NCBI GenBank assembly: GCA_035525455.1
Contig: DATLEF010000209.1
Span: 1-63,984 of the forward strand
Direction: 5' to 3'
DNA from: Burkholderiales bacterium
GTDB taxonomy: Bacteria > Pseudomonadota > Gammaproteobacteria > Burkholderiales > SG8-41
Length of the DNA stretch: 63,984 nt
Part shown: positions 12,757-60,904 of the stretch, piece by piece
Layout: every line of letters starts with the position of its first letter
Numbering within the stretch: the first letter of the stretch is position 1
Position numbers and translations under genes: made by a program
The notes under the pieces: generated by a model
The model's input: only the letters and a program-made list of their open reading frames with translations
Told to the model about the DNA's origin: nothing
The model's database searches: none

Positions 12757-13383
12757 GTGGCAAGAAACCTCGACGCGCGATGCCGTCAATGCCGCAGGGA
12801 AGGCGAGAAGCTGTTCCTGAAGGCCGAGAAGTGCTTCACCGATAAGTGCGCCATCGAACGGCGCAACTATCCGCCGGGCCAGCACGGTCAGAAAAATACG
12901 CGGCTTTCGGGCTACGGCGTGCAGCTGCGGGAGAAACAGAAAGTACGCCGCACTTACGGCGTGCTGGAAAAACAGTTTCGCCTCAATTATTTCCAGGCGG
13001 CGGCCAGCAAGGGCGTCACCGGCGAAGCGCTCCTGCAGATCCTCGAAGGACGGCTCGACAGCGTCTGCTACCGCATGGGTTTCGGCGGTTCGCGCACCGA
13101 AGCGCGCCAGATCGTGCGCCACAACGGGATCCTGGTGAACACCAAGCGAGTCAACATCCCGTCCTACCAGGTGCGTCCCGGCGACGTAATCGAGGTCGCG
13201 CAGCCGGCGAAAGCGCAGCTCCGCATCAAGGCCGCTGCTGAAGCGGTCGCCTCGCGCGGCTACCCGGAATGGGTAGAAGTCGATACCGCGGCGCTCAAAG
13301 GCACGTTCAAAGCACGGCCGCAGCGCTCCGAGCTGTCGTCCACCATCAATGAGTCGCTCGTGGTCGAGCTGTACTCCAAGTAA
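12757..13383 (+). CDS. rpsD: 30S ribosomal protein S4
   Basis: GTG at 12757 (in frame with track ORF 12481..13383) gives [25 protein letters not shown]...[14 protein letters not shown] Shine-Dalgarno lies upstream. Confidence 0.95.
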
Positions 13384-16399: not shown

Positions 16400-17017
16400 T
16401 TACATCTTTGGCGCGGTTTCGCGCCACGCGGGCAGGACCTCGATGCGCGCGTACCACGCCTGGATGTTCATGTAGGCCTCCAGCGGAAGTTGAGCCGGGG
16501 CCGCATAGTGCAGATAGGATGCGACCGCGAGATCCGCAAGCGTAAGCGTATCGTTCACGAGGTACTGCCGTTTCGCGAGGTGAGCATCGAGCACCGGCGC
16601 GTCGCGGTGGAACGCCGCTTCCGCGCGCTTCAAAGACTCCGGGTCAGTAGCGGTGCCGAGCAAGAGCTTCTTGACGAGGTTCTCCCAGAGAAACCCGCCA
16701 CATCCCTCGTGCCAGTGCGCGACCTGCCAGAACTGCCAACGTGCTATGTCAGCGCGTGTTCGGTCGTCCTCGGGCCACAATGAATTCTTCTTGAGCGATG
16801 CGAGGTACTGCATGATGGCATTCGACTCCCACAGCCTGAACTCGCCGTCTACGAGAACGGGAGTCCTGCCACCGGGGTTCATCGCAAGGAATTGTGGCGT
16901 GCGCGATTCGCCCTTTGTAATGTCCACGAATTCGAATTCGAGCGCGATGCCGAGATGAGCCGCGACTGCTTGCACCTTTCTGGTATTCGGCGATGGCGGA
17001 AAGCCATAGAGTTTCAT
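16400..17017 (-). CDS. Glutathione S-transferase family protein
   Basis: ATG at 17017 with a GGAGG Shine-Dalgarno. MKLYGFPPSPNTRKVQAVAAHLGI...LAMNPGGRTPVLVD...LWESNAIMQYL shows the GST N- and C-terminal domains. Confidence 0.85.
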   Translation of the reverse strand: MKLYGFPPSPNTRKVQAVAAHLGIALEFEFVDITKGESRTPQFLAMNPGGRTPVLVDGEFRLWESNAIMQYLASLKKNSLWPEDDRTRADIARWQFWQVAHWHEGCGGFLWENLVKKLLLGTATDPESLKRAEAAFHRDAPVLDAHLAKRQYLVNDTLTLADLAVASYLHYAAPAQLPLEAYMNIQAWYARIEVLPAWRETAPKM

Positions 17018-17054
17018 GTAAGCCTCCGGGCGTGTGTATGTCTCGTGAGTCCGG

Positions 17055-17495
17055 TCAGGCGAACAGTCGTGCCAGCCGCCGGATGCAACCGGTCCATCCC
17101 TGCTCGTGCCGTTCGCGCGCTTCCTCGTCCGCGAAGCGTTCATGCTTTAACAGAAACTCCGTGCCGTCGCCTGCGGGGGAGAGCTCTATTGTCACGAGCG
17201 ATTCGCGCTCGGGCGTGCTTTTCCACGCCCACGTATAGACGAGCTTCGTGTTCACGGTGACTTCGCGGTACACGCCGCTGACGTCGTGCTCTTCGCCATC
17301 CGGCGATTTCATGACGATGTGGTAGCGCCCGCCGACCCGCACGTCAGTTTCCGCGACGAGGATCTCAAAATCGGCGCTTGGCGCCATCCATTGTTTCAGC
17401 GCGTCCGGCTGCGTGAGCGCACGCCAGACCGCCTGCGGCGAGGCTTTGAACTTGCGGACGAGCGCGAGCGAGGTCTCGTCTCCGACTTTCTCCAT
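17055..17495 (-). CDS. SRPBCC/Aha1-like domain protein
   Basis: ...ASPQAVWRALTQPDALKQWMAP...RVGGRYHIVMKSPDGEEH...GWTGCIRRLARL. This is the classical partner of an ArsR-type regulator. Confidence 0.8.
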   Translation of the reverse strand: MEKVGDETSLALVRKFKASPQAVWRALTQPDALKQWMAPSADFEILVAETDVRVGGRYHIVMKSPDGEEHDVSGVYREVTVNTKLVYTWAWKSTPERESLVTIELSPAGDGTEFLLKHERFADEEARERHEQGWTGCIRRLARLFA

Positions 17496-38203: not shown

Positions 38204-38278
38204 TCGACACCTGACTTTAGCGTGCGGGCCGCGTGGCGCCCGCGCGATTCACTCCTAGCCGGACTCGTGCTTCAGCAA

Positions 38279-39250
38279 ATGGATTCGAGCGCGCGCTTCG
38301 AGTATCTCGATCTCCAGCCCACCACGGGTTCGTTCCTGAACGATGTGATCGCAGGTCTGTCGGCTGAACACAAAGCTTTACCGCCAAAGTATTTCTATGA
38401 TGCCCGCGGATCCGCCCTGTTCGACGCGATCTGTGAGCTTCCCGAGTACTATCCAACCCGCACCGAGCTCGCGGTTCTGCAGTCGTCCTCGAGCGAGATT
38501 GCCGAGCGGGCAGGGCGCCGTGGCGCGATCGTCGAATATGGCAGCGGCTCGGGCCGCAAGACTCGCGTATTGATTGCAGCGCTGGAGCCCGCCGTCTACG
38601 TCGCAATCGATATTTCCGCGGAGCAGCTGCGCTCGGCCGTTGCTAACCTCAGTGCGGAATTCACACAGGTACGCATGTATGCGGTCTGCGCGGACTACAC
38701 GCAAGCCGTGCCTCTGGACGATCTCGAAGCCTTACGCGGCCCACGCCGCATCATTTATTTTCCTGGCTCTACGATCGGCAATTTCACCACCGCGGATGCG
38801 CAGCGTTTTCTCGTCAACGCGCGGCAGGTTGCACGTAACGGCGGCGCGATGCTGGTGGGCGTAGATCTGAAGAAGGACGTGCGGCTCTTGCACGCCGCCT
38901 ACAACGATGCGCAGGGTGTTACTGCCGCGTTCAATCTCAACGTCCTCGCGCACATCAATCGCGAGCTTGGCGGCGATTTCGATCTCTCCGCATTTCGCCA
39001 TCATGCCTTTTACAACGAGGCGGAAAGTCGCATCGAAATGCATCTCGTGAGCACGCGCGCGCAACGCGCGATCATAGCCGGCCGAAGTTTCATGTTCAGT
39101 GCCGGTGAAAGCATCCACACGGAGAACTCCTACAAGTACTCGGTCGCGGAATTTCAGGCGCTCGCACGCGAAGCAGGCTTCGTCGACGAGCATTGCTGGG
39201 TCGACGATCAGGGTCTGTTCGCGATCCATTACCTGAGCGCGATGCCATAG
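38279..39250 (+). CDS. egtD: L-histidine N-alpha-methyltransferase (EgtD family)
   Basis: LPPKYFYDARGSALFDAICELPEYYPTRTE, EYGSGSGRKT, FPGSTIGNF, AYNDAQGVTAAFNLNVLAHINRELGGDFDL and IHTENSYKY align with mycobacterial EgtD. Confidence 0.85.
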   Translation: MDSSARFEYLDLQPTTGSFLNDVIAGLSAEHKALPPKYFYDARGSALFDAICELPEYYPTRTELAVLQSSSSEIAERAGRRGAIVEYGSGSGRKTRVLIAALEPAVYVAIDISAEQLRSAVANLSAEFTQVRMYAVCADYTQAVPLDDLEALRGPRRIIYFPGSTIGNFTTADAQRFLVNARQVARNGGAMLVGVDLKKDVRLLHAAYNDAQGVTAAFNLNVLAHINRELGGDFDLSAFRHHAFYNEAESRIEMHLVSTRAQRAIIAGRSFMFSAGESIHTENSYKYSVAEFQALAREAGFVDEHCWVDDQGLFAIHYLSAMP

Positions 39251-39397: not shown

Positions 39398-40558
39398 ATG
39401 TCGATTCACCTCATCGTTCTCCTGTGCGCGCTCAGCCATTCGGGCTTCGGCGGCAGCCGCATTGCGATTTCCCTCTATGCGTTGAATCTCGGTGCCACGC
39501 AATTCACGATCGGCGTGCTGATGGCGTTGTATGCCATCTGTCCGCTGCTCATGGCGCTGTATGTGGGCCGGCTTGCCGACCGCGTCGGTCCGCGCATACT
39601 GATGCTGATAGGCTCCGCCGGTGTGACGATAGGGCTCTTGTTACCGCCTCTCTTTCCGGGCTTGCCTGTGCTCTATGTGACGGCCCTGCTTCTCGGCTCG
39701 ACGTTTCTTTTCTTTTTCATCACCGTGCAGGGAATCGCAGGCGGCATCGGCGGCACCGAAAATCGTGCGCGCAATTTCGCCCTCGTCGGTATGGGCTTTT
39801 CCGCGGCAGGATTCATCGGCCCATTCGCCGCCGGCCTTGCAATCGATCATCTGGGGCATGTCCCGGCGTTCCTCGTGCTTGCGGTGTTTCCGAGCGTGTC
39901 CGTGCTGCTCCTGCTGTGCAAGCCCGATTTTCTGCCAAGAGCACGGAAGCACGCGGCCGTATCGGGCAGCCGCAGCGCACTCGACCTGTGGCGCAATGGC
40001 GCGTTACGCAACACGTTTATCGCGAGCGGCATCATTTCCTCGGCGTGGGATTTGTTCTTGTTCTATTTCCCCGTGTATGGACACTCGGTCGGCCTCTCGG
40101 CGTCGGTCATCGGCGCCGTGCTCGGTGTATTCGCGCTGGCAACATTCACGATACGCATCGTTTTGCCGGCGCTGGCGAAGCGTTATTCGGAGTCGCAGGT
40201 GCTGACGGGCGGCATCTTCGTGGCGGCGTTTGCTTTTGTGTTATTTCCGTTTTTCGAAAGCGCCTACGCGCTCGGTGCCAGCGCGTTCTTGCTCGGCCTC
40301 GGGGTAGGCTGCGGCCAGCCTATGTCGATGTCGCTCATTTACGCGCTTGCGCCGCCGGGGCGTCAGGCCGAAGCCGCAGGGCTGCGCGTGACTGCGAACA
40401 ACGTGACCCATCTGGTGATTCCGCTCTTGTTCGGCAGCCTGGGAACGGCGTTCGGCTACATGCCGGTGTTTCTGTGCAATTCCGCAATGCTCGTCGCAGG
40501 TGGGGTGATGATGCGGCGCGCGAAAATCGGTATTTCCCAACATACCTACATCACGTGA
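39398..40558 (+). CDS. MFS transporter
   Basis: 386 aa with about 12 hydrophobic helices. The GRLADRVGPR motif lies between TM2 and TM3. Confidence 0.85.
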   Translation: MSIHLIVLLCALSHSGFGGSRIAISLYALNLGATQFTIGVLMALYAICPLLMALYVGRLADRVGPRILMLIGSAGVTIGLLLPPLFPGLPVLYVTALLLGSTFLFFFITVQGIAGGIGGTENRARNFALVGMGFSAAGFIGPFAAGLAIDHLGHVPAFLVLAVFPSVSVLLLLCKPDFLPRARKHAAVSGSRSALDLWRNGALRNTFIASGIISSAWDLFLFYFPVYGHSVGLSASVIGAVLGVFALATFTIRIVLPALAKRYSESQVLTGGIFVAAFAFVLFPFFESAYALGASAFLLGLGVGCGQPMSMSLIYALAPPGRQAEAAGLRVTANNVTHLVIPLLFGSLGTAFGYMPVFLCNSAMLVAGGVMMRRAKIGISQHTYIT

Positions 40559-41617: not shown

Positions 41618-43633
41618 CTAGTCCTTCAATATTCTGAACAGGTTGTTGTAGTCGTCAGTCCAGACGCCGAGACCGGGTATGGTCTCGATTTCGGTTGCAG
41701 CCGACGTGATTTCCTGCTGACTGAGCAACGCGGGATTCCGCGCAAGCAGCACCCAATCCGTTTTTGCGAGATCGCTTTCTTCGGCTTCGTCGATCACGAG
41801 CACGCTGCGCAGCCTGTACTCATCGGCGATCATCTTGACGACCGGCGCGAGTCGCAGGAATCGGTTCGTCACGTGAAAAGCGAGGATGCCATCCGGCTTC
41901 AGGTGCTTCAGGTACACGGCCATCGCTTCTCGTGTAATCAAGTGCACGGGGATCGAATCGCTCGAGAATGCATCGATCGCGATGAGGTCGTAATTCTGCG
42001 CAGGCTCGCGTTCCATGTTGAGGCGCGCGTCGCCAAGCACGGTCTCGATCGTGGCACGGCTATCGGAGAGATATGTAAACTGCGCGCGAGCGATGCCGAT
42101 CACCTGGGGATTGAGCTCGTAGAACCGGTAGACATCGCCAGGACGGCCATACGCTGCAAGCGTGCCGGTACCGAGGCCGACTACAGCCACGCGCAGCGGA
42201 TTCGCGCTGAGTCGTGCGATCGCCCGTCCGATGCCTGAGCTCGGCCCGTAATAGGTAGTCGGCTCTGTCCGACGTTTTTCGGAAAGATACTGCTCGCCAT
42301 GCATGATGACGCCGTGCATGAGCCTGCGCACGCCGTCCGCGCCGGAGCCCACGTCGCGCACGCGCAGCGTCCCGTAAAAATTACGGGTCATGACTCGTGC
42401 GTTGCGGGACAGCGATTCCACATATGCGTACACGTGGTACGCGGTAAAGCCTGCGGCGCAAACCACGAGCAGCGGCACGAAAAAAGGCATTCGCCGCACC
42501 AGCGCTGCGGCGAGCAGCAGTGTGATGACCAGTCCTACCCCAAACTCGTAGTAAGTCGGAAAGAGCCGCGGTGCCACAAATCCCACGAAGAAGCCGCCCA
42601 ACGCACCGCCCAGTGACACCATCAGATAGAAGCTCGTCAGGTAACGCGGCGCCGGTTTCATGTCGGCGAGCTCTCCGTGAAAAAACATACAGCACACGAA
42701 AAGACCTGCGGAGAAGAGCGCCACCGCCTCTTTAATATCGTGAATGCTGCGGTCCGCGTGCAGTGCCCACGCCATAGCTGCTGCGACCATGATCAGCGGT
42801 CCGAGAAAAATATTCCGCCGGTACCATCCGCGCCCTTCGAAACACAGGATGAAGGTCAGGAGATAAATAGTGAGCGGCAGGATCCACAGGAAGGGCACTG
42901 AGGCGACGTCGTGCGTGATGTGGTTCGTCACGGCCAGCAGCATGAACGAGCCCATCGCCGACAGGAGCAGCCATAGCGCAAACTCGCGCGGCATCGGCCG
43001 GGGACCTTCGTTCATGGTCGCGATCGTCGCAGCGGCCGGGCTTCCAGTCGGATGGGATCGCAGACTGTATACGGCTGCGCCAGCGCAGAGCAGCACAAAC
43101 ACACCGTACGCGATGCTCCAACCGACAGACTGGCGCACGGTGCTCACCCATGGCTCGAGCACGAAAGGGTATGACACGAGCGCGAGCAGAGACGCCAGAT
43201 TCGACAACGCGAAAAGACGGTATACCGTGCCAGCGGGAAAGCTGCGGGTGAACCAGGCCTGTACCAGCGGACCTGTCGTCGAAAGAAGGAAGTACGGCAA
43301 GCCGATCGTAGCAGTGAGCAATCCAAGAATGCGCCATGCCGGCTCTTCATCGCCGGCGGGCTTCCATGCAGCGCTCGCAATTATGGGAAGCGAGGCAAGG
43401 CTCAGTAGCAGCAGCGCAATATGCAGCCCGACCTGGTGAGTCGCTTTCAGGCGGCGTGTGGTCCAGTCCGAGTACGCGTAACCGAACAGCAGCAGGAACT
43501 GAAAGAACACGAGACAGGTCGTCCAGACTGCGGCGGAGCCACCGAACCACGGCAGGATTTGCTTCGCCATGATCGGCTGCACGAGGAACAGCAGAAACGC
43601 GCTCGCGAAGATGGTCAGCGCGTAAAGTATCAT
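41618..43633 (-). CDS. Fused membrane domain / spermidine-synthase-like (class I MTase fold) protein
   Basis: The N-terminal ~430 aa are polytopic. The C-terminal part (VAVVGLGTGTLAAYG...YDLIAIDAFSSDSIPVHLIT...LKPDGILAFH) is aminopropyltransferase-like. Confidence 0.7.
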   Translation of the reverse strand: MILYALTIFASAFLLFLVQPIMAKQILPWFGGSAAVWTTCLVFFQFLLLFGYAYSDWTTRRLKATHQVGLHIALLLLSLASLPIIASAAWKPAGDEEPAWRILGLLTATIGLPYFLLSTTGPLVQAWFTRSFPAGTVYRLFALSNLASLLALVSYPFVLEPWVSTVRQSVGWSIAYGVFVLLCAGAAVYSLRSHPTGSPAAATIATMNEGPRPMPREFALWLLLSAMGSFMLLAVTNHITHDVASVPFLWILPLTIYLLTFILCFEGRGWYRRNIFLGPLIMVAAAMAWALHADRSIHDIKEAVALFSAGLFVCCMFFHGELADMKPAPRYLTSFYLMVSLGGALGGFFVGFVAPRLFPTYYEFGVGLVITLLLAAALVRRMPFFVPLLVVCAAGFTAYHVYAYVESLSRNARVMTRNFYGTLRVRDVGSGADGVRRLMHGVIMHGEQYLSEKRRTEPTTYYGPSSGIGRAIARLSANPLRVAVVGLGTGTLAAYGRPGDVYRFYELNPQVIGIARAQFTYLSDSRATIETVLGDARLNMEREPAQNYDLIAIDAFSSDSIPVHLITREAMAVYLKHLKPDGILAFHVTNRFLRLAPVVKMIADEYRLRSVLVIDEAEESDLAKTDWVLLARNPALLSQQEITSAATEIETIPGLGVWTDDYNNLFRILKD

Positions 43634-46079: not shown

Positions 46080-46174
46080 TGGCGGAAGAGAGTGGGAGTC
46101 GAACCCACGCAGGACCGCCTGCGGCCCCTACCGGGTTTGAAGTCCGGCCGCCCCACCGGGAGCGATTCCCTTCC
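46080..46174 (-). tRNA. selC: tRNA-Sec (anticodon UCA), CCA encoded
   Basis: The reverse complement is GGAAGGGAATCGCTCCCGGTGGGGCGGCCGGACTTCAAACCCGGTAGGGGCCGCAGGCGGTCCTGCGTGGGTTCGACTCCCACTCTCTTCCGCCA (95 nt). It has an 8-bp acceptor stem and a long variable arm, and is nearly collinear with E. coli selC. Confidence 0.95.
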
Positions 46175-46237
46175 GTTATTGAAACTATGAGCTGATGCGT
46201 GGGACTGCGTGAGGCGGGTTTACACCGACCAGTGCTG

Positions 46238-46423
46238 CTAGCCGAGCTGTTTGTTCGGCTCGGCTCGAGCAACCACGCTGTTGTATTGCCGCACGAACTG
46301 AAGGGCTACGGCAGCTGCGCGTTTGTCTCCGTTCGTGAAAGCGGTTGCGTATTGCTGGAGCCAGTAATCCCTGCGGCCGTCCTGAGACCCTGCTTGTATG
46401 TTGCTGCTTGTGTTCTCAGCCAT
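46238..46423 (-). CDS. Hypothetical 61-aa protein between the TrxR-like gene and selC
   Basis: ATG preceded by an AAGGGGGA Shine-Dalgarno. No recognisable motif. Same orientation as the sel genes. Confidence 0.45.
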   Translation of the reverse strand: MAENTSSNIQAGSQDGRRDYWLQQYATAFTNGDKRAAAVALQFVRQYNSVVARAEPNKQLG

Positions 46424-46506
46424 GACATCCCCCTTACTGGAAGAACCAAGATTTTACAACGGTGTGCTTCGTGATTGAAGCTTGCGTTTCGCTGCGCATC
46501 CGTCCG

Positions 46507-47412
46507 CTATATGAGCGCTTGTTGCAGCGCGGCAGCCGCCCGTCGTGCGTCATCGAGCGCAGCGCCCAAAGTGCCGCCGAACTGGCTGCGCACGGCGCCG
46601 ATCGCGGAGACTCCCGCGACGTTCGTCTGCAACGCATCATTAACGCGCAGGAAACGGTTCGCATCGCGCTCGACATCATTCGCCAGAAATTCCACGTTGG
46701 GCTCGAGACCGATGTAGGCGAAAACACCTGCGCACGGCAGGTCCTCGGTGCGGCCGTCGGCGTGTTTCAACTGGGCCTTCTCGACCATTTTGGAGCCGTC
46801 GATCGCCTGAACGGTTGCATTCCAGATAACCCGAATCTTGTCGTTGGTTCGCACCTGGTCGGCAAAATGCGGTGTGCCGGTGAATGTATCTCGGCGATGT
46901 ACCAGAGTCACCCGCCGACAGTACTGCGCGAGCACCAGCGCTTCCTGCAGTGCCGAGTCTCCACCGCCGACCACGATGACTTCTTCGTTCTGATACATGG
47001 GCCCGTCGCAATCGGCACACTGGGAAACGCCGCGGCCCTCGTATTCCGCTTCGCCGGGAACGCCCAGCTTTTTCAAGCGTGCGCCGGAGGCGACGATGAC
47101 GCAGCGGGCGCGATACGACCCGGACGCGGTCACGATCTCTTTTTGATCACCGTTATTGCGTACGAGCGTCACCGGCTCCTGAATGCTCGTGACACCCGCT
47201 TCGGCGTTCGCCTGCATCATTCCTGCAGCGAGCTCGGCACCCGATGTCGGCTGGCCTGCGGGAACCGGATCGAGCTCGTTCACATTGATGACGAGGCCCC
47301 CGAAGAGCTGTCCTTCGATCGTTGCGACTTTGAGTCCGGCCTGGGCGAGCATGCCGGCGGCGCTGAGCCCGCTCACGCCCTCGCCGATCACGATTACGTC
47401 ATGAATAGACAC
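46507..47412 (-). CDS. Thioredoxin-reductase-like FAD/NAD(P)H disulfide oxidoreductase
   Basis: DVIVIGEGVSGLSAA (FAD), redox-active CADC (compare TrxB CATC), VVGGGDSALQEA and HRRD (NADPH). It starts 12 nt after the selB stop. Confidence 0.85.
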   Translation of the reverse strand: MSIHDVIVIGEGVSGLSAAGMLAQAGLKVATIEGQLFGGLVINVNELDPVPAGQPTSGAELAAGMMQANAEAGVTSIQEPVTLVRNNGDQKEIVTASGSYRARCVIVASGARLKKLGVPGEAEYEGRGVSQCADCDGPMYQNEEVIVVGGGDSALQEALVLAQYCRRVTLVHRRDTFTGTPHFADQVRTNDKIRVIWNATVQAIDGSKMVEKAQLKHADGRTEDLPCAGVFAYIGLEPNVEFLANDVERDANRFLRVNDALQTNVAGVSAIGAVRSQFGGTLGAALDDARRAAAALQQALI

Positions 47413-47424
47413 GTGCGTATCCCT

Positions 47425-49425
47425 TTATCGTCGGTATGTTTGAAGCGGCCGCCGCGGAGGTCCCGTGGGCTTGGCCTGTGCTTTTGCGGGCGGCCGCTGG
47501 ACTGGGCTCGCTGCACCCAGTATCGGCACAAAATCCTTCCGCATCTTGCGCGCATCGCCAAGGCGCTGAGTAATGCCGAGCGTGTCCAGAAATTCGAGGA
47601 TCTCGATCGCGAGGCTGCGTCCAACTCCGGTCGCATCACGGTATTGGGCTGCAGTGAATTGCCCGTTCGGCTGCCCCTGCGCCGTAGCCTGAGCGATCGC
47701 CGCGAGTGTCGCCAGCGTAGACCGCGTGTAGAAGCGATCGGCCGTGACCTTGAGCACTTCGCCGCTCTTCGCTTTGCGATGAAGAAAATCCTTGACGATG
47801 CCTTCCTTCAATTTGACCTGCAGCGCAAGCTCGCGCAGCGGCGGCGAGTTGAAACCGGCGCTTTCGAGCGCCGGCCGAACAGTCTGCCACATTCGATCGT
47901 CCGCGGCGTTCGCCGTCGCGTCGTGGCCCGCGATGCGCGCGGTCGAGCCGCTCGCCTCTATTTTGCGCTCGTCCGTGAGACGTCTCAGAAACGAGCCGAA
48001 CATGTCAGCGCTCAGGTCCGGCGCAACCGATCTGCGCAGCGTTTCCACTTCCTGCCCCACTGCCTGTGGGTGCTCGCTGTGGAAGCGCAGGAGCTCCGCA
48101 ACGATGGCTTCCTGTAATGCCTGGTAATGTCCGCGTGTGACAGCGACCCGCGCATCTTTGCCTAACTGCACGAGCTCCGCATTCGCGTAGAGTTGCGTTG
48201 CACGCTCCCGCGTCAGGTTGTACACCACCTCGAAACGCCGCAGATCGATCACGCGCTCGCCGGTGCGCAGCAATTCGGACAGCGCGGTCTCGGGCGCGTC
48301 GTGCTCGAGCGCTGCGAGCTCGACCTTGCGCGCTGGGGACGTGCGGCGCGTCGCCGGAGCGAATGGGTCGAGGACGAAGCCGCCGCCTATGGTGCGCGTG
48401 GCTGACTGGTCGCGCAGAATGAACCGATCACCTCGCAGTGCGCAAATCGGCTGATCGAGCACGAGCTGGGCCACCGCCCCAGTACCCGGCTCAAGCGCTG
48501 TCCCTTGCCGGGTGGCGATACGCGCGGTTACATCACTGGTTGCAAGATGCAAATGGACCGGCGTCCAATGCTCGAGCGCACGAGCTTCGGCGCCCAATAC
48601 CGTCACGCGAGCGTCGAGGCGTCGAGTCGGGCGATGGAGCTCAGGCGCGACAACCCAATCCCCGCGATGCACGGCTTCGAGACCGGCGCCCGTCAGATTG
48701 AGCGCGCAGCGTTCACCCGCTGATGCGCCCTGTGCAACGTCGCCCTTGATCTGTATGCCCCGCACACGCACTTCCTGCCCCGCCGGCGAGACGACGAGCT
48801 TGTCGCCCACCTTCACGACTCCGTTGAAAACCGTGCCGGTAACCACCGTGCCGCTGCCGGCCACACTGAACGTGCGGTCGACTGCGTATCTGAAATTCTG
48901 GCCCGCGGATAGCCGGGCCGAATGCTGCATCGCTTCCGCAATAAGAAGCTCGCGAAGCTCCGTCATTCCGGATCCGGTGACAGCCGAAACCGCTATCACC
49001 GGCACATGCGCGAGCTGGGTGCTCTGAACGAGCGCGGCGACCTGCTGCTCGACTTCGCGAACACGATCGCTGTCAACGCGATCGGTTTTGGTAATGACTG
49101 CCACGCCGCGATTCACGTGCAGCAGATCGAGGATATGCAGGTGCTCTATCGTTTGCGGCATGATGCCATCGTCCGCTGCCACGACGAGCAACGAGAAATC
49201 GATGCCGCATACGCCTGCCAGCATGTTGCGTATGAAGCGTTCGTGGCCCGGAACGTCAACGAAACCGATCAGCTTGCCGTCAGGCAGCGGCAGATACGCA
49301 AAACCCAGGTCGATCGAGATGCCGCGCGCTTTCTCTTCCGGCAGACGGTCGGTGTCGACGCCGGTCAATGTCTTCACGAGCAACGTCTTGCCGTGATCGA
49401 TATGGCCTGCAGTCGCGACGATCAT
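47425..49425 (-). CDS. selB: Selenocysteine-specific translation elongation factor SelB
   Basis: MIVATAGHIDHGKTLLVKTLTGVDTDRLPEEKARGISIDLGF...DVPGHERF and a long winged-helix C-terminal extension. 666 aa. Confidence 0.93.
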   Translation of the reverse strand: MIVATAGHIDHGKTLLVKTLTGVDTDRLPEEKARGISIDLGFAYLPLPDGKLIGFVDVPGHERFIRNMLAGVCGIDFSLLVVAADDGIMPQTIEHLHILDLLHVNRGVAVITKTDRVDSDRVREVEQQVAALVQSTQLAHVPVIAVSAVTGSGMTELRELLIAEAMQHSARLSAGQNFRYAVDRTFSVAGSGTVVTGTVFNGVVKVGDKLVVSPAGQEVRVRGIQIKGDVAQGASAGERCALNLTGAGLEAVHRGDWVVAPELHRPTRRLDARVTVLGAEARALEHWTPVHLHLATSDVTARIATRQGTALEPGTGAVAQLVLDQPICALRGDRFILRDQSATRTIGGGFVLDPFAPATRRTSPARKVELAALEHDAPETALSELLRTGERVIDLRRFEVVYNLTRERATQLYANAELVQLGKDARVAVTRGHYQALQEAIVAELLRFHSEHPQAVGQEVETLRRSVAPDLSADMFGSFLRRLTDERKIEASGSTARIAGHDATANAADDRMWQTVRPALESAGFNSPPLRELALQVKLKEGIVKDFLHRKAKSGEVLKVTADRFYTRSTLATLAAIAQATAQGQPNGQFTAAQYRDATGVGRSLAIEILEFLDTLGITQRLGDARKMRKDFVPILGAASPVQRPPAKAQAKPTGPPRRPLQTYRR

Positions 49426-50831
49426 CGACTGAAATCCAGGTTACCGAGCTGGGCGACGAAACCGTGCTCGTCGTCGAGGCAGCGCAGGTCCATCAGAAAA
49501 GCGCCGTCTTTGATGCGGCCGATGACGGGCACGGGCAAAGCACGAAACGCTTTAGCGATGATCTGCACGGCGGACGTTTTGTTTTTTCCCGTACTGACGA
49601 TCGCGATTCCGGCGCTGGGCAGCGATTCGACCGGCAGCGAGCCGCTTCCGATCTGGCTCGCGCACTGAATGACCGTAGCGCTCGCTTTGCCATTGAGGAC
49701 GGCAAGGATGCGCGGCAAGAGGCGCGCAGCAAGCGCTTCCAATTCAGCGACTGGACGCGTGAGTGCGGACATTATGGGCAATTCGTCTTTCAGCCGCTGC
49801 GGGTTGGCATAAAGCTGCAATACGGATTCCAGAGCAGCCAACGTCATCTTGTCGACTCTCAGCGCGCGTTTCATCGGGTTCTTCTTGATGCGCTGGATCA
49901 GATCTTTGCGGCCGACGATGAGACCCGCCTGCGGGCCGCCGAGAAGCTTATCGCCGCTGAACGTAACGATGTGGGCGCCCTGCGCGAGCGCTTCGCGCGG
50001 CGTAGGTTCGTGAGGCAGGCCGTATTCTTCCAGATCGACGAGCGTGCCACTTCCCAGATCGACGATGAAGGGCAGCTCGTGTTTGCGCGCAAGGGCTGCG
50101 AGATCCGCTTCGGAAACGGCCGCAGTAAAGCCCTGGATCGCATAGTTGCTCGTGTGCACCTTCATGATGGCTGCGACGCGCGGCCCGATGGCGTCGGCAT
50201 AATCCCTGGGGTGCGTGCGATTCGTTGTGCCAACTTCGTGAAGCTTGCAGCCCGCGCGCGACATGATGTCGGGAATGCGAAACGCGCCTCCAATTTCGAT
50301 CAACTCTCCGCGCGAGACGAGGACTTCCTTTTTCGCCGCAAGCGTATTCAACACGAGATATACGGCCGCCGCGTTGTTGTTGACCACTACGGCGCTCTCG
50401 GCACCGGTCAGTCTCGTCAGCCAACGCTCGACGTGCTGATCGCGTTCGCCGCGAGCGGCGCCGTCGAGATCGAATTCGAGGTTAACCGGACGCGTCATCG
50501 CCTGCACGACGGCGTCGGCGGCGCAGCGCGGCATGACCGCGCGCCCGAGATTGGTATGCAGCACCGTGCCGCTGAGATTGAAAACAGGCTTCAGTGACGG
50601 TTGGGCGTCCTGGATCAGCTGTGTTGCACAACGTTCAATGAACGCGGCTTCGTTGAAGCTCCAATCGGCTCGTTCGCCGAGTGCAGCGCGCTCGCGATCG
50701 AGCTGCGTGCGCAAAGCGTCGACTACGAGCGGCCTGCCATAGCGCGAGACTAAAGTCGCGACGCGCCTGTCGTTGAGAAGCCGATCGACCGCTGGAAGCG
50801 CGCGACGCGCGGCCGCAGCCGTGTTCAGCAC
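49422..50831 (-). CDS. selA: L-seryl-tRNA(Sec) selenium transferase SelA
   Basis: GTG start. NLSGTVLHTNLGRA, GELIEIGGAFRIPDIM, KVHTSNY and FSGDKLLGGPQAG (PLP lysine). ATGA overlap with selB. Confidence 0.93.
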   Translation of the reverse strand: MLNTAAAARRALPAVDRLLNDRRVATLVSRYGRPLVVDALRTQLDRERAALGERADWSFNEAAFIERCATQLIQDAQPSLKPVFNLSGTVLHTNLGRAVMPRCAADAVVQAMTRPVNLEFDLDGAARGERDQHVERWLTRLTGAESAVVVNNNAAAVYLVLNTLAAKKEVLVSRGELIEIGGAFRIPDIMSRAGCKLHEVGTTNRTHPRDYADAIGPRVAAIMKVHTSNYAIQGFTAAVSEADLAALARKHELPFIVDLGSGTLVDLEEYGLPHEPTPREALAQGAHIVTFSGDKLLGGPQAGLIVGRKDLIQRIKKNPMKRALRVDKMTLAALESVLQLYANPQRLKDELPIMSALTRPVAELEALAARLLPRILAVLNGKASATVIQCASQIGSGSLPVESLPSAGIAIVSTGKNKTSAVQIIAKAFRALPVPVIGRIKDGAFLMDLRCLDDEHGFVAQLGNLDFSR

Positions 50832-51028
50832 GGCTGCAGGCGAAGTCGAATGAGTGGAGGCGGAGCCGGAAAGCCTGCTCTGCGCGATAACAGCATGGCA
50901 ACGGTGGAGCGTGTGGAGCGCGCTAGTTTAACTCAAGCACGGAGCGCAATCTAATCGATACGCGGCCGGCGTCGAGGGCATGTGCTCGCGAAAACCCGCG
51001 CTGGTGCGCGGCTTTTGCTCTGCTGCGG

Positions 51029-51802
51029 TTACTCCCAAAGCCTTTCGGGCAGCGGCAGCCCCGCCAGATCCTGAGGCGTCGGGCGCCGCTCGGGCTGTAT
51101 GCCGTAGCGCTCCAATACGGCGGCGAGTTGGCGCGCGTGCTGCGCGGAATGCCACGTCGAGCGCTCCAGGAGCTGATGCATCGGCTGAGGTCCGTAGAAC
51201 GTGGGGGCGTTCTGCGTGCAGGATTTGTCCGCGAGCTGCGACCACCATGTTTCGAGGCGGGCGATGACCTGATCGCCGTAGTCCGCGACATGCTTACCCG
51301 TCGTAAAGGTGCCTTCGGCGGGCGGTACATTGGCGTGCTGGACCGCGTACACCACGTTATCGTTTACCGTCTCGAGAAACGCTTCGCCGATGCGGAAAAC
51401 ATGATGCGCGAGCAGCCGTAGGGCGCGATCGCGATTGGGAATCACGCGGTCGCTCATCTTGTCGTCTGGAATCTGACGTATCAGGCTTTGCGCGATACGC
51501 AGGACGTTGGTCCATTTGGCAATGAGCTCGTGCGGCGGTAACGGTGTGTGCCCCGTGCCCTGGAGGCCGACGAACTCGGCAACATCTTCGAGATTCTGTC
51601 CGAAGACGAATTGCCCGCCCTTCGATACGACCGGCACGTTACGCACGCCGAGCTTGAGCAAACGCTCGCGGCCGCCGGCATCGTTCAGCACGTCGACTGC
51701 GTCAAACTCGATGCCTTTGCGCGAAAGAAACTCTTTCGCCCGTAGACAGCTGCTTCAGCCGGGCTGTGTAAAGAGAACGAATCTGTCTGCGACGGTGTTC
51801 AT
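51029..51802 (-). CDS. Candidate selenoprotein: glutaredoxin-like (U-S-S-C) domain fused to a DinB-like domain; in-frame TGA (Sec) at 51755-51757
   Basis: Track ORFs 51755..52000(-) and 51029..51691(-) share a frame and are separated only by the TGA. Read-through gives MNTVADRFVLFTQPG-U-SSCLRAKEFLSRKGIEFDAVDVLNDAGGRERLLKLGVRNVPVV..., a complete Grx/NrdH fold. The C-terminus has DinB-like His residues. The sel genes are adjacent. The start could also be ATG 51820. Confidence 0.75.
51721..51739 (-). promoter_or_regulatory. Candidate bacterial SECIS hairpin
   Basis: The mRNA reads UGA + 15 nt, then GCGAAAG AGUUU CUUUCGC (7-bp stem). The apical loop contains G-U, about 24 nt after the UGA. Confidence 0.5.
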
Positions 51803-51911
51803 GGGGGATCCAGAGAGCATGAAAAGGGAATGCAAGGCTACTCCCGCGCTATTCGCAGCGTCAAGGCGGGAGACATCGCGGCGTGCGTAGTGCGCGAGGC
51901 GCAGCAAGGCG

Positions 51912-53063
51912 TTACTGATTCGGCTCAGCGCGAGTGCCCGCGGGACATCCGCTTTGCGACGCGGCAGCGTGATCCTTTTGCGCGGATTCGATGATCCCAC
52001 CGCCGAGACATACCCGGCTTTCGTAAATCACGACCGACTGCCCGGGTGTCACCGCCCACTGTGCCTCTGCGAAGTCCACGACACAGTGCTCGCTATTCAC
52101 GTCCACTATCGTACAAGGCGCATCCTTCTGGCGGTATCGCGTTTTCGCTCCGTACACCCATTGGCAATGGGGAACAGTTCCGGCGATCCAGTTCAGCCGC
52201 ACTGCGCTCACCTGGAGTGAATACAACGCGCGGCTCTCGCGTCCCTGTACCACGACGAGGCGATTGCGCTTCATGTCTTTGTCGACGACGTACCAGGCAT
52301 CGCCGTCGCCGTCGCGCTGCCCGCCGATGCGAAGGCCCTGGCGCTGGCCCAAGGTATAAAACATTAGGCCCATGTGCTCGCCGACGATGCGTCCATCCAG
52401 GGTGTAGATCTCGCCCGGATTGGCAGGCAGATAGCGGTTCAGAAATTCCCGAAACGGCCGCTCACCTATGAAACAGATTCCCGTGGAATCGCGCTTGTCG
52501 TGATTCGGCAGCCCTTCTCGCCGTGCGATATCGCGTACCTCACGCTTGTACAGGCCACCCAGCGGAAAGAGCGTCTTCGAAAGCTGCCGCTGGTCGAGCC
52601 GATACAGAAAATAGGTTTGATCCTTCGATCCGTCTTCGGCCTTGACGAGCTGATACAGACCGTCCACTTCACGAACGTGCGCATAATGACCGGTCGCGAT
52701 GTAGTCCGCGCCCAGCGTCAGCGCGTGATTGAGGAATGCGCGAAATTTGATTTCCGCGTTGCACAGCACGTCCGGATTCGGCGTGCGTCCGGCACGATAC
52801 TCGGACAGGAATTCGCTGAACACGCGCTCTTTGTATTCGGCCGAAAAATTGACGGCGTCGATTTCGATGCCGATGCGGTCGGCGACGGCAACAGCGTCCA
52901 CGAGGTCCTGTCGCGAGCTGCAATACTCGTCGTTGTCGTCGTCTTCCCAGTTCTTCATGAAAAGACCGACGACCTCGTGCCCCTGCTGCTTGAGCAGCAG
53001 CGCTGCGACCGCCGAGTCGACACCGCCCGAGAGGCCCACGACGATACGTTTTCTTGCCGGCAT
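51912..53063 (-). CDS. mnmA: tRNA 2-thiouridine(34) synthase MnmA
   Basis: [18 protein letters not shown] (PP-loop), [16 protein letters not shown] and TGHYA motifs. Confidence 0.94.
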
Positions 53064-54548: not shown

Positions 54549-55925
54549 ATGACTGAACGACTCGACCTGCTGAAGATCGCGCAGGAAGAACAGAGCGGTG
54601 ACCTGTTCAAGTATCTGGACAGCATTTACAAGAGATCCAAGACACAGCCCCGTGGCATTGCGGACGCGGTCATCTGGGAGGGCGGGAACCCCGCAGGCAA
54701 CGTAAAGCCCGTTGCCCATGCTTTTACCGATATGTTTGCGCTCAACGGCACCTTGATGGCGCTCGACGTGCTGGGCTTGCCGTTCCTCGGCGTGCCGATG
54801 ATGGCGCAGTACCGGCACGACACCAATCTCGCACCGCTCGAATGGTTCGGCAAGCTCGATGCAACGGCGATCAAGTGGTCGACGGCTGGCGATGCGCTGG
54901 TGAACGACAACGGTAAAAAGGTCGTGGTCAAAGGCAAGTCGGCGAATGCGCCGCTGCGCACTGCAGCGGGGGTGTATTGCAACGTGCGCCCGTACGGCAC
55001 CATAACCAGCGTACGTTTCATGCCGGGCCTGCCGTACTCGCAGGACAGCAAGAAATTCCGCGTCGACCGCGATAGCGGCAACATCCATTCGGAAATGAAC
55101 ACGCCCGGTGTGCGGATGGCATACGCGGTGCGCCTCTTCCTGAAGATGGTGCACGAGACCGGACACGTCGGCCGCATTGCGACCAAGCCTACCCAAGCCC
55201 AGGAAGACGCCGTCAACGCCGGCATCGTCCGCTGGCTGCTCCAGGGCACGAAGTTCCAATTGAAACGCCAGTACGCCGTCGACGCCTACGCCGAGCACAA
55301 AGCGAACGTCGATGCGATCGTCGCGCTGCTGCCCAAGGACTTCAAAGCCGGCATGGAGAATTGGGGCGGCGAGATTAACGAGCACATCTCCGACACCAAC
55401 TTCGGAATTCTGCTGCACGACATGTATCAGCAGCGCAATGCGATCGTGTACGCAACCGACCTGGACGGTGATCGCCTGACCGATCTCATGGCTGACGGGC
55501 CCGACGTGCTGCGCGGCTGGGGCCAGAAGATCCTCGACCACGTAAAGGCCGGCGTGGACATGAAACAGGTCTGGAAAGACATGGGCTTCACCATGACGAA
55601 CGGAAAAGACATGACGAGCGTCATGTACCGCATCGAGGGTGCGCCGATTTTCGAGCAGACGCTGGGCTCAGCGGACGCGATGTTGCTGCGCCTGCTCGCC
55701 GGGGATGAGACAGTCGGCGGCGAGAAACAGCCTTACGATCCGCGGATTCATTTCGTTCTGATTAACGAGGCCTACAAGGCCGCGAATCCGGGCAACACTG
55801 AATTCGCGCGCTGGCTCGATGCGCAGCTTGCGACGTTCGACAAGCTTTACAGCGGCAAGCGGCCGCGCTATCTCGAGGGTTACAACAAGCTGAAAGAGGC
55901 GATCAAGCCCTGGGGTACAAAGTAA
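54549..55925 (+). CDS. Hypothetical soluble protein, 458 aa, no family recognised
   Basis: Long ORF with protein-like composition and native codon bias. No signal peptide, TM helix or catalytic motif that I recognise. The antisense ORF has the Arg/Ala/His/Val-rich composition typical of artefacts. Confidence 0.7.
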   Translation: MTERLDLLKIAQEEQSGDLFKYLDSIYKRSKTQPRGIADAVIWEGGNPAGNVKPVAHAFTDMFALNGTLMALDVLGLPFLGVPMMAQYRHDTNLAPLEWFGKLDATAIKWSTAGDALVNDNGKKVVVKGKSANAPLRTAAGVYCNVRPYGTITSVRFMPGLPYSQDSKKFRVDRDSGNIHSEMNTPGVRMAYAVRLFLKMVHETGHVGRIATKPTQAQEDAVNAGIVRWLLQGTKFQLKRQYAVDAYAEHKANVDAIVALLPKDFKAGMENWGGEINEHISDTNFGILLHDMYQQRNAIVYATDLDGDRLTDLMADGPDVLRGWGQKILDHVKAGVDMKQVWKDMGFTMTNGKDMTSVMYRIEGAPIFEQTLGSADAMLLRLLAGDETVGGEKQPYDPRIHFVLINEAYKAANPGNTEFARWLDAQLATFDKLYSGKRPRYLEGYNKLKEAIKPWGTK

Positions 55926-59210: not shown

Positions 59211-59244
59211 TATAATGCTCTCGCTGCGTCACCGGGGAAAACGC

Positions 59245-59595
59245 ATGAACCTGTCCATTCCGCAGGCGTTTGGTTTTTCCGCTCTCTGCTCATTCGGCTT
59301 GGTGTTCTCCGCCGCCGCCCAGGATTCGAACGCGGGGCGCAATCTCGCCGCCAACTGCTTTACCTGTCACGGCACCAACGGCAACAGCGCCGGCGGTGTC
59401 CCGCCGAGCCTGGCAGGCCGTGCGCACGCCGAGCTCTTTCAGACGATGAAGGACTTCCAGTCCGGCAGTCGGCCCGCCACGATCATGCATCAGCAGGCGA
59501 AAGGCTATAACGACGAGCAGCTGCAGCTCATCGCTGCTTATTTTGCCGCGCAGAAACCGGCGCCTGCGCGCGTGCCGCCCAAAGCCTCAAACTGA
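59245..59595 (+). CDS. fccA: Monohaem c-type cytochrome, flavocytochrome c sulfide dehydrogenase small subunit (FccA/SoxE-like)
   Basis: ATG at 59245; signal peptide; CFTCHG haem site. It lies directly upstream of fccB. Confidence 0.75.
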   Translation: MNLSIPQAFGFSALCSFGLVFSAAAQDSNAGRNLAANCFTCHGTNGNSAGGVPPSLAGRAHAELFQTMKDFQSGSRPATIMHQQAKGYNDEQLQLIAAYFAAQKPAPARVPPKASN

Positions 59596-59605
59596 GGAGC
59601 ATGAA

Positions 59606-60904
59606 ATGCCCTTCTCCCGACGCGAATTCCTGAAGTGGATTTCGGCGAGTGCCGGCGCGACCGCGCTTGGCGGTTGCGAATCCCCTGGCGCGCCGCGCAC
59701 TGCGGTCGATGCACCCGCGCGCGCTGCTGCACGAGTCGTGGTCATCGGCGGCGGCTATGGCGGCGCCACTGCGGCCAAATACGTGAAGATGTGGGCGCCG
59801 GATGTCGACGTCGTGCTGGTCGAGCGTAGCACGCGATTTATTTCGTGCCCCATCAGCAACCTCGTGCTCGCCGGTAACACGACCATGCAGGAGATCACCA
59901 TGGGTTACGACGCGCTGCGGGCACGCGGCGTGCGCGTAATCCACGACGACGCGAGTGCCATCGATGCAGATCGGCGCCAAGTCCGACTGGCGAGCGGTGT
60001 TGTCCTCTCGTACGATCGCGCGATCGTGTCGCCCGGAGTCGACTTCATGTACGACCAGATTCCGGGTTTACGCAGTGCCGAGGCCCAGCAGCGCATCCTG
60101 CACGCGTGGAAAGCGGGTGAGCAGACGATTGCGCTCCGCAAGCAACTCGAAGCGATGCCGGACGGCGGCGTCTATGTGCTGCAGATTCCAGTGGCGCCCT
60201 ATCGCTGCCCGCCCGGGCCATACGAGCGCGTCTGTCAGGTTGCCGATTATTTCAAGCGCGCGAAGGCGCGCTCGAAAATTATCGTCCTTGATGCGAATCC
60301 CGACATCGTGTCGAAGAAAGGCCTCTTTCTCCAGGAATGGAACGGCGCGTACAAAGGCATGATCGAGTACCGGCCGAACAGCGAGCTCGCCGACATCGAC
60401 GTGCGAGGCATGACGGTGAAGCTCCAGTTCGAGGACGTGAAAGGCACAGTCATCAACGTTGTCCCGCCGCATCGCGCGGGCGACATCGCTCAAAAGAGCG
60501 GTCTTATCACCGCGAATCAGCGCTGGTGTGGTGTGGATTGGCTCACCGCCGAATCAGTCGCAGTCAAGAATGTCCACGTCATCGGAGATTCGACGCTATC
60601 GGCCTCGGCGATGCCGAAATCGGCGAGCATGGCGAACCAGCACGGCAAGCTTTGCGCGGCCAGTGTGGTCGCGCTGCTCAAAGGCGAGCCGGTGAATCCG
60701 AACCCGGTCATCATGAATACGTGCTACAGCTTCGTGAGCCGCAACAGCGCGATGCACGTCGCGTCAGTCCATCAATACGACGCGAAGGAAAAAACGCTGT
60801 TGCCCGTCAAAGGCGCCGGTGGCGTTTCCGACAAGGCCTCGGAGATCGAAGGTTCTTACGCGTGGGGTTGGGCAAGAAACATCTGGGCGGATGCGCTCGC
60901 CTGA
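59606..60904 (+). CDS. fccB: Flavocytochrome c sulfide dehydrogenase flavoprotein subunit (FccB/SoxF)
   Basis: Tat signal MPFSRREFLKWISASAG. VVVIGGGYGGATAAKY (FAD), the CPISN and YRCPPGPYER redox Cys motifs, and VHVIGDS. Confidence 0.85.
   Translation: MPFSRREFLKWISASAGATALGGCESPGAPRTAVDAPARAAARVVVIGGGYGGATAAKYVKMWAPDVDVVLVERSTRFISCPISNLVLAGNTTMQEITMGYDALRARGVRVIHDDASAIDADRRQVRLASGVVLSYDRAIVSPGVDFMYDQIPGLRSAEAQQRILHAWKAGEQTIALRKQLEAMPDGGVYVLQIPVAPYRCPPGPYERVCQVADYFKRAKARSKIIVLDANPDIVSKKGLFLQEWNGAYKGMIEYRPNSELADIDVRGMTVKLQFEDVKGTVINVVPPHRAGDIAQKSGLITANQRWCGVDWLTAESVAVKNVHVIGDSTLSASAMPKSASMANQHGKLCAASVVALLKGEPVNPNPVIMNTCYSFVSRNSAMHVASVHQYDAKEKTLLPVKGAGGVSDKASEIEGSYAWGWARNIWADALA

Follow-up and report, generated by a model that had tools for sequence, protein, structure and literature searches.

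Formate dehydrogenase is usually considered the main reason why Proteobacteria keep selenocysteine (Sec), and to our knowledge the accessory genes of bacterial selenium use are few (YedE, YedF, LysR_Se, DUF3343 and a SelD-fused oxidoreductase), all of them proposed from neighbourhood evidence. A thioredoxin reductase (TrxR) gene is kept in a selenoprotein cluster in the glycine-reductase (grd) operons, where the embedded trxB-trxA genes feed electrons to a CxxU/UxxC selenoprotein. In proteobacterial clusters of the fdoGHI-selABCD type, selA and selB are translationally coupled, a tRNA-Sec follows on the same strand and the gene of a client selenoprotein lies near by (PMC8124441). Here we analysed a 63,984 bp contig of a Burkholderiales bacterium (DATLEF010000209.1; 60.6% G+C; hereafter the window), the sel operon of which shares these features, whereas the client is not formate dehydrogenase, selD is absent and a gene for a TrxR-like flavoprotein stands between selB and selC. 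The client is a protein in which a glutaredoxin (Grx)-type domain carrying Sec is fused to a DinB/YfiT-type domain (hereafter named Grx-DinB). The arrangement also differs from the grd operons, in which the reductase sits with the selenoprotein genes rather than with the Sec machinery, a separate thioredoxin is encoded, and which belong to anaerobic Firmicutes. The logic of the Sec insertion sequence (SECIS) is textbook, as are the tRNA and the sel genes themselves. In the reviews and comparative-genomics papers searched, we found neither a TrxR-like gene in a selAB-selC operon, nor a TrxR paralogue that keeps this place between selB and selC throughout a large clade, nor a proteobacterial Sec cluster without formate dehydrogenase near by.

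For comparison, 80 species-representative genome loci were collected by means of the TrxR-like protein of the window (orthologue identity 50–74%), and these together with three relatives of the window (L001–L003) form a set of 83 loci. The 80 loci are described as all coming from metagenome-assembled genomes (MAGs) of uncultivated Betaproteobacteria/Burkholderiales, with L076 recorded as an Eremiobacterota chromosome. The TrxR-like gene was directly preceded by selB in 76 of the 80 loci (median gap 13 nt), and directly followed by a same-strand tRNA-Sec in 72 of them (median gap 85 nt). Three of the other four loci are contigs that begin at the TrxR-like gene itself, and the fourth is L076, which has a relative of 51% identity and no sel genes beside it; in seven of the eight loci without the downstream tRNA, the contig ends 17–1300 nt past the TrxR-like gene. 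The gap of ~13 nt after selB was kept among orthologues down to 50% identity, and the metagenome contigs reaching past selB had the same gene order in every case (9/9). The first-pass annotation of the window had described the TrxR-like gene as embedded between selB and selC, and its phylogenetic co-occurrence with the sel genes shows it to be fixed there. Thus the core unit selA-selB-[TrxR-like]-tRNA-Sec is conserved over a broad clade of uncultivated Betaproteobacteria/Burkholderiales, and the TrxR-like gene becomes a new candidate accessory gene of the Sec trait in a clade widespread in soil, groundwater and freshwater. Several MAGs with the cluster (L006, L013–L015, L019–L021, L073 and others) have records naming Bordetella parapertussis, Streptomycetaceae, Rhodospirillaceae or Chitinophaga pinensis, and such labels on a betaproteobacterial cluster are probably taxonomic mislabels or binning errors.

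The TrxR-like protein missed the cut-offs of both TrxB models, scoring 245.8 bits with the TrxB equivalog TIGR01292 (cut-off 343.45) and 110.6 bits with the E. coli-type model NF007614 (cut-off 644). On these scores its identity with the housekeeping TrxB was rejected, and it is therefore taken as a divergent paralogue. A look-up of contigs by exact match to this protein gave no record. The best solved relative was 5uwy (190 bits), the CAVC of which aligned with the CADC of the TrxR-like protein. An AlphaFold model (pLDDT 87.6, with residues 36–43 of low confidence) matched the L. lactis TrxR 5mh4 with a template modelling (TM) score of 0.91 at 33% identity, and the predicted fold is that of the two-domain low-molecular-weight TrxRs. 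GxGxxG, C132-A-D-C135 and GGGDSA were invariant in 26 orthologues. The sequence HRRDTFTG keeps the HRR of the NADPH signature HRRxxxR and has the last Arg absent, an invariant GA (G272-A273) stands where 5uwy has the C-terminal FAD-binding GD, and the subfamily has an extra invariant Cys227. As far as sequence and model can tell, the enzyme looks functional.

The candidate selenoprotein that had been noticed directly upstream of selA is, by its sequence signals, a real Sec-encoding gene. Its in-frame TGA (51757–51755) reads MNTVADRFVLFTQPG-TGA-SSCLRAKEFL... and is followed by 241 codons; an alternative start, ATG, lies at 51820. Of the 83 loci, 44 held a full-length copy, and every one of these had TGA at the same codon (PG-U-SSC). 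With a limit of E ≤ 1e-5, 3553 metagenome clusters were returned, and the Grx-DinB loci confirmed in a metagenome scan number at least 574; among the best 80, from which the Sec or Cys state was read, 77 carried TGA (the Sec form). Cys homologues were abundant, with PGC[ST]SC aligned with PG-U-SSC. A stretch of 17 nt after the TGA (CGAAAGAGTTTCTTTCG) was identical in all 44 orthologues, third codon positions included, whereas outside it the 60-nt stretches all differed and adjacent third codon positions varied freely. This 17-mer occurs once in the window. Diverged Grx-DinB copies unlinked from sel genes retained the hairpin, with one A-to-G change that keeps the pairing as G-U, whereas three Cys-form loci encoded the same K-E-F-L residues as AAG GAR TTC CTS, with the hairpin absent. 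The folding energy of the hairpin alone was unexceptional (z = −1.17); its stem and loop fit the usual bacterial SECIS geometry, with a G in the apical loop. Taken together, the conserved TGA, the invariant SECIS-like hairpin and the Cys homologues mark Grx-DinB, at the level of sequence, as a genuine selenoprotein gene. A crude scan of the window for TGA-split open reading frames (ORFs) with a Cys/Sec redox motif found no other selenoprotein gene, a weak negative given that the same scan missed Grx-DinB too.

Grx-DinB is apparently an uncatalogued selenoprotein family. The DinB fusion is missing from a 2026 list that covers 119 selenoprotein families of prokaryotes and in which Grx (UxxC) figures as a free-standing protein (PMC13188914), and in the literature searched we found no paper describing a DinB-fused selenoprotein. 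In GenBank and IMG the protein is annotated in a shortened form of 205–238 aa, as ‘DinB family protein’, ‘glutaredoxin domain-containing protein’ or ‘NrdH-redoxin’, which is why selenoproteome surveys and MAG annotation miss it. The family is abundant in metagenomes, and the present assignment corrects MAG annotation.

With the Pfam Glutaredoxin model (PF00462) Grx-DinB scored 51.4 bits (threshold 22.9), and Sec occupies the first CxxC position. No NCBIfam model reached its cut-off on the protein, the redoxin models YruB, Uxx_star and NrdH giving 44.4, 41 and 35.6 bits against cut-offs of 88.55, 66 and 85.75 respectively. By sequence, the redoxin domain was closest to C. oremlandii cGrx1 (7c10, 56 bits; TMt 0.86) and to NrdH proteins. 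Pfam DinB_2 (PF12867) scored 22.9 bits with the window protein, just under its threshold of 24.8, and many homologues carry a precomputed PF12867 match. The structure was taken from the AlphaFold model (pLDDT 93.4) of the Cys homologue P0243, which is 48–49% identical to the window protein. Its N-terminal domain had TM scores of 0.86–0.90 to BC3987, cGrx1 and related small redoxins, and its C-terminal domain matched YfiT (1rxq), DR0053 and other DinB four-helix bundles with a Foldseek probability of 1.0 (TMt 0.82 to 6iz2). Three histidines (H142, H225 and H229 in P0243 numbering), invariant in sets of 12 and 49 sequences, match the His-x...HxxxH metal triad of DinB proteins. Enzymes of the DinB/YfiT type are metal-dependent thiol S-transferases, in which the metal activates a thiol(ate) nucleophile (PMC5815605, PMC10950700).

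Each half of Grx-DinB has described counterparts from which the fusion departs. Clostridium oremlandii Grx1 (PF00462, UxxC; Cys form 7c10) has the same fold and the same UxxC position, whereas the known Sec-containing Grx proteins are free-standing and ~80–100 aa long, and Grx-DinB has the motif U-S-S-C and is fused to a DinB domain of ~170 aa. The DinB/YfiT thiol transferases share the four-helix bundle and the His triad, and are paired in the cell with a TrxR-like enzyme, the bacillithiol disulfide reductase YpdA; in Grx-DinB, in contrast, the nucleophile would be a protein selenolate on the fused redoxin rather than a free low-molecular-weight thiol, and the DinB_2 score is below threshold. 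The features of the locus are collected in Table 1; the sel gene calls were judged by curated thresholds (TIGR/NCBIfam cut-offs and the Rfam gathering score) and do not rest on chance similarity.

Table 1. Positions of the sel operon, the Grx-DinB gene and associated elements in the window
Feature	Position	Strand	Description
selC, tRNA-Sec	46080..46174	(-)	ARAGORN, anticodon TCA; Rfam RF01852 75.8 bits (gathering score 47); last gene of the operon
61-aa ORF	46238..46423	(-)	No Pfam/NCBIfam match; lineage-specific insertion outside the conserved core
TrxR-like flavoprotein, 301 aa	46507..47412	(-)	GxGxxG FAD motif; C132-A-D-C135 redox motif; GGGDSA/HRRD NAD(P)H motif
selB, Sec-specific elongation factor	47425..49425	(-)	TIGR00475 465.1 bits (cut-off 242.25)
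selA, selenocysteine synthase	49422..50831	(-)	TIGR00474 587.6 bits (cut-off 267.9)
Terminator-like hairpin	50996..51011	(-)	CCGCGC-ACCA-GCGCGG, then GTTTT; between Grx-DinB and selA; weaker, degenerate copy of the conserved terminator
Grx-DinB selenoprotein gene, 257 aa	51029..51802	(-)	NrdH/cGrx1-like glutaredoxin domain with U16-S-S-C19; C-terminal DinB/YfiT bundle with His triad
SECIS core hairpin	51722..51738	(-)	CGAAAGA-GUU-UCUUUCG; 7-8 bp stem; GUU loop starting 23 nt after the UGA
mnmA, tRNA 2-thiouridine synthase	51912..53063	(-)	NF001138 463 bits (cut-off 284); upstream neighbour of Grx-DinB

The locus is made up of two adjacent transcription units that are conserved across a broad clade of uncultivated Betaproteobacteria/Burkholderiales. 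The first, selA-selB-[TrxR-like]-selC (with the 61-aa ORF in the sublineage of the window), is probably co-transcribed as a whole, and would make and deliver Sec-tRNA while co-expressing the divergent low-molecular-weight TrxR paralogue. The second, upstream and with its own terminator, would provide the selenoprotein, a U-S-S-C glutaredoxin-type domain joined to a metal-binding DinB/YfiT four-helix bundle. We propose that the TrxR-like enzyme couples NAD(P)H electrons to selenium chemistry, and that its target is most likely the U-S-S-C redoxin domain (the selenenylsulfide) of Grx-DinB, although we hold to this target only tentatively. Electrons would pass from NAD(P)H to FAD, to C132/C135 of the TrxR-like enzyme and on to the selenenylsulfide U16–C19 of the redoxin domain; the reduced selenolate could then attack a substrate bound by the DinB domain at its His-triad metal site, the reaction being of the thiol/selenol-transferase or reductase type. 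A reductase housed inside the sel operon would share the fate of Sec insertion in expression, inheritance and loss, which would explain why the Cys-form genes have no TrxR neighbour.

Precedents for such a pairing exist. Besides the reductase genes embedded in the glycine-reductase operons, the Cp34/Cp9 pair of Clostridium pasteurianum consists of a TrxR-like enzyme and a Grx-like partner. Redoxins of the NrdH type are reduced by thioredoxin reductase (PMC3190916), and the redoxin domain of Grx-DinB, judged from sequence and model, resembles these known reductase substrates, its nearest relatives being NrdH, BC3987 and cGrx1. In the NrdH-redoxin/TrxB and Cp34/Cp9 systems the electrons for a redoxin of the glutaredoxin fold come from a low-molecular-weight flavoenzyme of the TrxR type and not from glutathione, as is proposed here; the present redoxin differs in that it misses the NrdH and YruB cut-offs, carries Sec and is fused, and no peroxiredoxin or ribonucleotide reductase partner lies near by. 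The animal selenoprotein TrxR offers a likeness of function, itself hypothetical, in the order NADPH, FAD, dithiol and selenenylsulfide, whereas the animal enzyme is of high molecular weight and carries its Sec in the C-terminal GCUG of one polypeptide, and here the Sec centre would sit on a separate protein. In the sampled loci the unusual reductase goes with the unusual selenoprotein, and the ordinary fdoGHI-selABCD clusters have been described without such a reductase (PMC8124441). A stronger reading, which we regard as doubtful, is that the TrxR-like enzyme and Grx-DinB form a dedicated bacterial selenium redox relay, as a split, two-protein counterpart of the animal Sec-TrxR, or else supply the missing NAD(P)H-driven step that gives SelD reduced selenium in aerobic bacteria. 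In either case the Sec trait would have gained an accessory component that is passed on with the sel operon.

In 63 loci Grx-DinB lay upstream of selA at a distance of up to 5 kb; the two were no more than 300 nt apart in 23 of these, and 1.2–5 kb apart with other genes between them in 37. Among long metagenome contigs with the Sec form the sel operon followed downstream in eight. Several observations weigh against the proposed electron transfer to Grx-DinB. Nine long contigs with the Sec form, about half of such contigs, have neither sel genes nor a TrxR homologue over ~8 kb around it; and three Cys-form loci have no TrxR neighbour, their flanking genes being unrelated. Conversely, at least four loci (L018, L038, L074 and L078) have the sel-TrxR-like operon and no Grx-DinB in the ~4–6 kb upstream of selA. 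The linkage of the TrxR-like gene to selB and selC is therefore closer than its linkage to Grx-DinB. The two units are moreover separated by an intrinsic terminator, AAAAGCCGCGC-loop-GCGCGGCTTTT, which lies 15–30 nt past the Grx-DinB stop codon in 19 of 25 compact loci; the conserved form has an A-tract, a GCCGCGC stem with compensatory stem changes, and a T-tract. An orthologous glutathione S-transferase (GST) gene of 62–84% identity, missing at this position in the window, is divergently paired with Grx-DinB in ~40 loci (e.g. L001 4870–5481 (-)), a pairing that hints at a glutathione-linked role for Grx-DinB. In addition, cGrx1, the closest solved redoxin, is a glutaredoxin that, according to the title of a reference in PMC13188914, was crystallised with glutathione bound. 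By analogy with these structures and in view of the GST pairing, the redoxin domain may be reduced by glutathione instead of by the TrxR-like enzyme.

A single operon from Grx-DinB to selC was accordingly rejected for most genomes, given the terminator after Grx-DinB and the genes inserted before selA, and the TrxR-like gene as an obligate genomic partner of the Grx-DinB family was unsupported, as no TrxR homologue is found near the Cys-form loci or the Sec-form loci unlinked from sel genes. The first-pass annotation had grouped Grx-DinB, the TrxR-like gene and the sel genes into one module; what stands is that they are neighbours in many species, and what does not is a common operon, since Grx-DinB is outside the sel operon in most genomes. 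With regard to GST genes, the window holds only a remote relative in sequence (16400–17143 (-), 29% identity), and distantly related GST-like genes adjoin the sel-unlinked Grx-DinB copies in L162 and L165.

Could the enzyme work on selenium itself? In the main rival reading, which in our estimate is little less likely than the preferred one, the TrxR-like enzyme would be a part of Sec biosynthesis itself and, with electrons from NAD(P)H, turn species derived from selenite (selenodiglutathione, protein-bound Se or Se(0)) into selenide for SelD, with Grx-DinB being either one client selenoprotein or the redoxin partner of the enzyme. The TrxR-like gene is locked between selB and selC and unlinked from Grx-DinB where the latter moves, as a supply function would predict, and the in vivo selenium donor of SelD is still a debated question (PMC13188914). 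Selenite is a substrate of the thioredoxin system, and E. coli cannot form selenoproteins properly without TrxA, but the thioredoxin system of Pseudomonas stutzeri reduced selenite only with TrxA (PMC8538045), so that a low-molecular-weight TrxR would probably depend on a redoxin partner; no such partner is encoded in the operon. In cyanobacteria, SelD occurs as a fusion with an NADH oxidoreductase that was earlier proposed to generate the SelD substrate (COG1252, PMC2432076), and that is thus likewise a pyridine-nucleotide flavoprotein coupled to the selenium machinery and a proposed reducer of selenium compounds; it belongs, however, to another flavoprotein family, and its partner in the fusion is SelD, whereas the present gene lies between selB and selC. 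A helper of SelD would be expected beside selD, whereas no selD was found in the cluster, in the window or among the called genes of L001–L003, and the description of fdoGHI-selABCD clusters lacking the reductase gene also speaks against a supply role.

Alternatively, a TrxR paralogue may have been inserted once between selB and selC in the ancestor of the clade and now act in thiol-redox housekeeping of a general kind or on some unrelated substrate, without any function specific to selenium; the gene would then persist because it is trapped in a tight operon. We consider this improbable, even though all loci may share one ancestral arrangement, in which case the counts are not independent events, and even though the Eremiobacterota relative stands without sel neighbours. 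The sel operon does accept other inserts, namely the 61-aa ORF, stretches of 1.2–1.7 kb before tRNA-Sec and an ORF of ~200 aa in L072, L074 and L078, but these are sporadic, whereas the TrxR-like gene is present in every sampled locus that extends downstream of selB. Furthermore, its catalytic residues are invariant, its short distance from selB is kept to the lowest identities sampled, and by both TrxB models it is clearly not the housekeeping enzyme. The reduction of Grx-DinB by the TrxR-like enzyme is the reading we prefer, and whichever task is the real one, the finding bears on what reduces selenium or selenoproteins in vivo and provides a testable lead.

The organization of the operon in the window agreed with its earlier description in each gene, coordinate and spacing when it was reproduced from the ORF listing, ARAGORN and Rfam, with five tightly spaced elements all on the minus strand. 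The ATGA overlap of selA and selB lies at 49425–49422, the selB stop codon (TAA, 47427–47425) is separated by 12 nt from the GTG start of the TrxR-like gene at 47412, the 61-aa ORF has a Shine-Dalgarno sequence (GGGGGA) 7 nt upstream of its ATG, and 63 nt separate its stop codon from tRNA-Sec. The beta-barrel and the C-terminal winged-helix (SECIS-binding) domains of SelB were matched by PF25461, PF09106 and PF09107. A sigma-70 promoter scan gave zero sites, a negative that is uninformative for this organism.

All ORFs of at least 290 aa in the window were scanned against Pfam or NCBIfam, and none encoded SelD, formate dehydrogenase, SelU or YedE/YedF, in agreement with the earlier remarks that selD is not in the window and that no formate dehydrogenase is near by. 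Formate dehydrogenase is thus not at the centre of this Sec cluster from a proteobacterium. As selD is absent from the window, the locus cannot be claimed to be the ‘self-contained’ selenium redox module that had been suggested; selD was not among the called genes of the relatives L001–L003 either. The statement that selC is often unlinked from selAB was too strong, since selABC(D) clusters, even with overlapping selB and selC, have been described in Proteobacteria (PMC8124441).

The 61-aa ORF had been counted as a member of the unit, but apart from the window only the two nearest relatives have it: sensitive tblastn found it in just three of the 83 loci (the window, L001 and L003), and it was rejected as a conserved operon member. 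Between the window and L003 it has 8 synonymous and 2 non-synonymous substitutions and, because these are mostly synonymous, it is probably a real small gene, specific to the sublineage. Other loci have nothing in its position or an insert of 1.2–1.7 kb without a clear ORF. Such inserts between the TrxR-like gene and tRNA-Sec were seen in L002, L004, L005, L047, L051 and L083, and inspection of that in L004 revealed no convincing ORF. The extra ORF of ~200 aa in L072, L074 and L078 occupies a selA-selB gap of 640–715 nt and by eye resembles an S-adenosylmethionine-dependent methyltransferase. L041 has two tRNA-Sec genes 2 kb apart (10942–11036 and 13156–13250), and L070 is rearranged, with selA downstream of tRNA-Sec.

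On the other side of Grx-DinB, mnmA is the direct upstream neighbour, or is separated from it by one opposite-strand GST gene, in 54 loci (L001–L166), and it stays beside Grx-DinB even where the latter is several kb from selA. MnmA makes 2-thiouridine, which the selenouridine pathway converts into 2-selenouridine.

Elsewhere in the window are a ribosomal-protein/secY/rpoA block, uvrA, clpA/B-like genes and aspS. A gene for the hercynine-forming histidine methyltransferase EgtD (38222–39250 (+); TIGR03438 406 bits, cut-off 291), ~7 kb from selC, is accompanied by an MFS gene (39398–40558) and has no adjoining egtB; a link between egtD and the DinB domain was considered and dropped, as the synteny of egtD is limited to the closest relatives (L002–L004). 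Two large ORFs had no Pfam match, one of 458 aa (54549–55925 (+)) and one of 671 aa (41618–43633 (-)), the latter weakly resembling fused MFS/spermidine-synthase proteins and kept in L002–L004, L016 and L017. Finally, a c-type cytochrome gene followed by a gene for a flavocytochrome c sulfide dehydrogenase flavoprotein (FCSD domains) at 59215–60904 (+) looks like a sulfide-oxidising pair.

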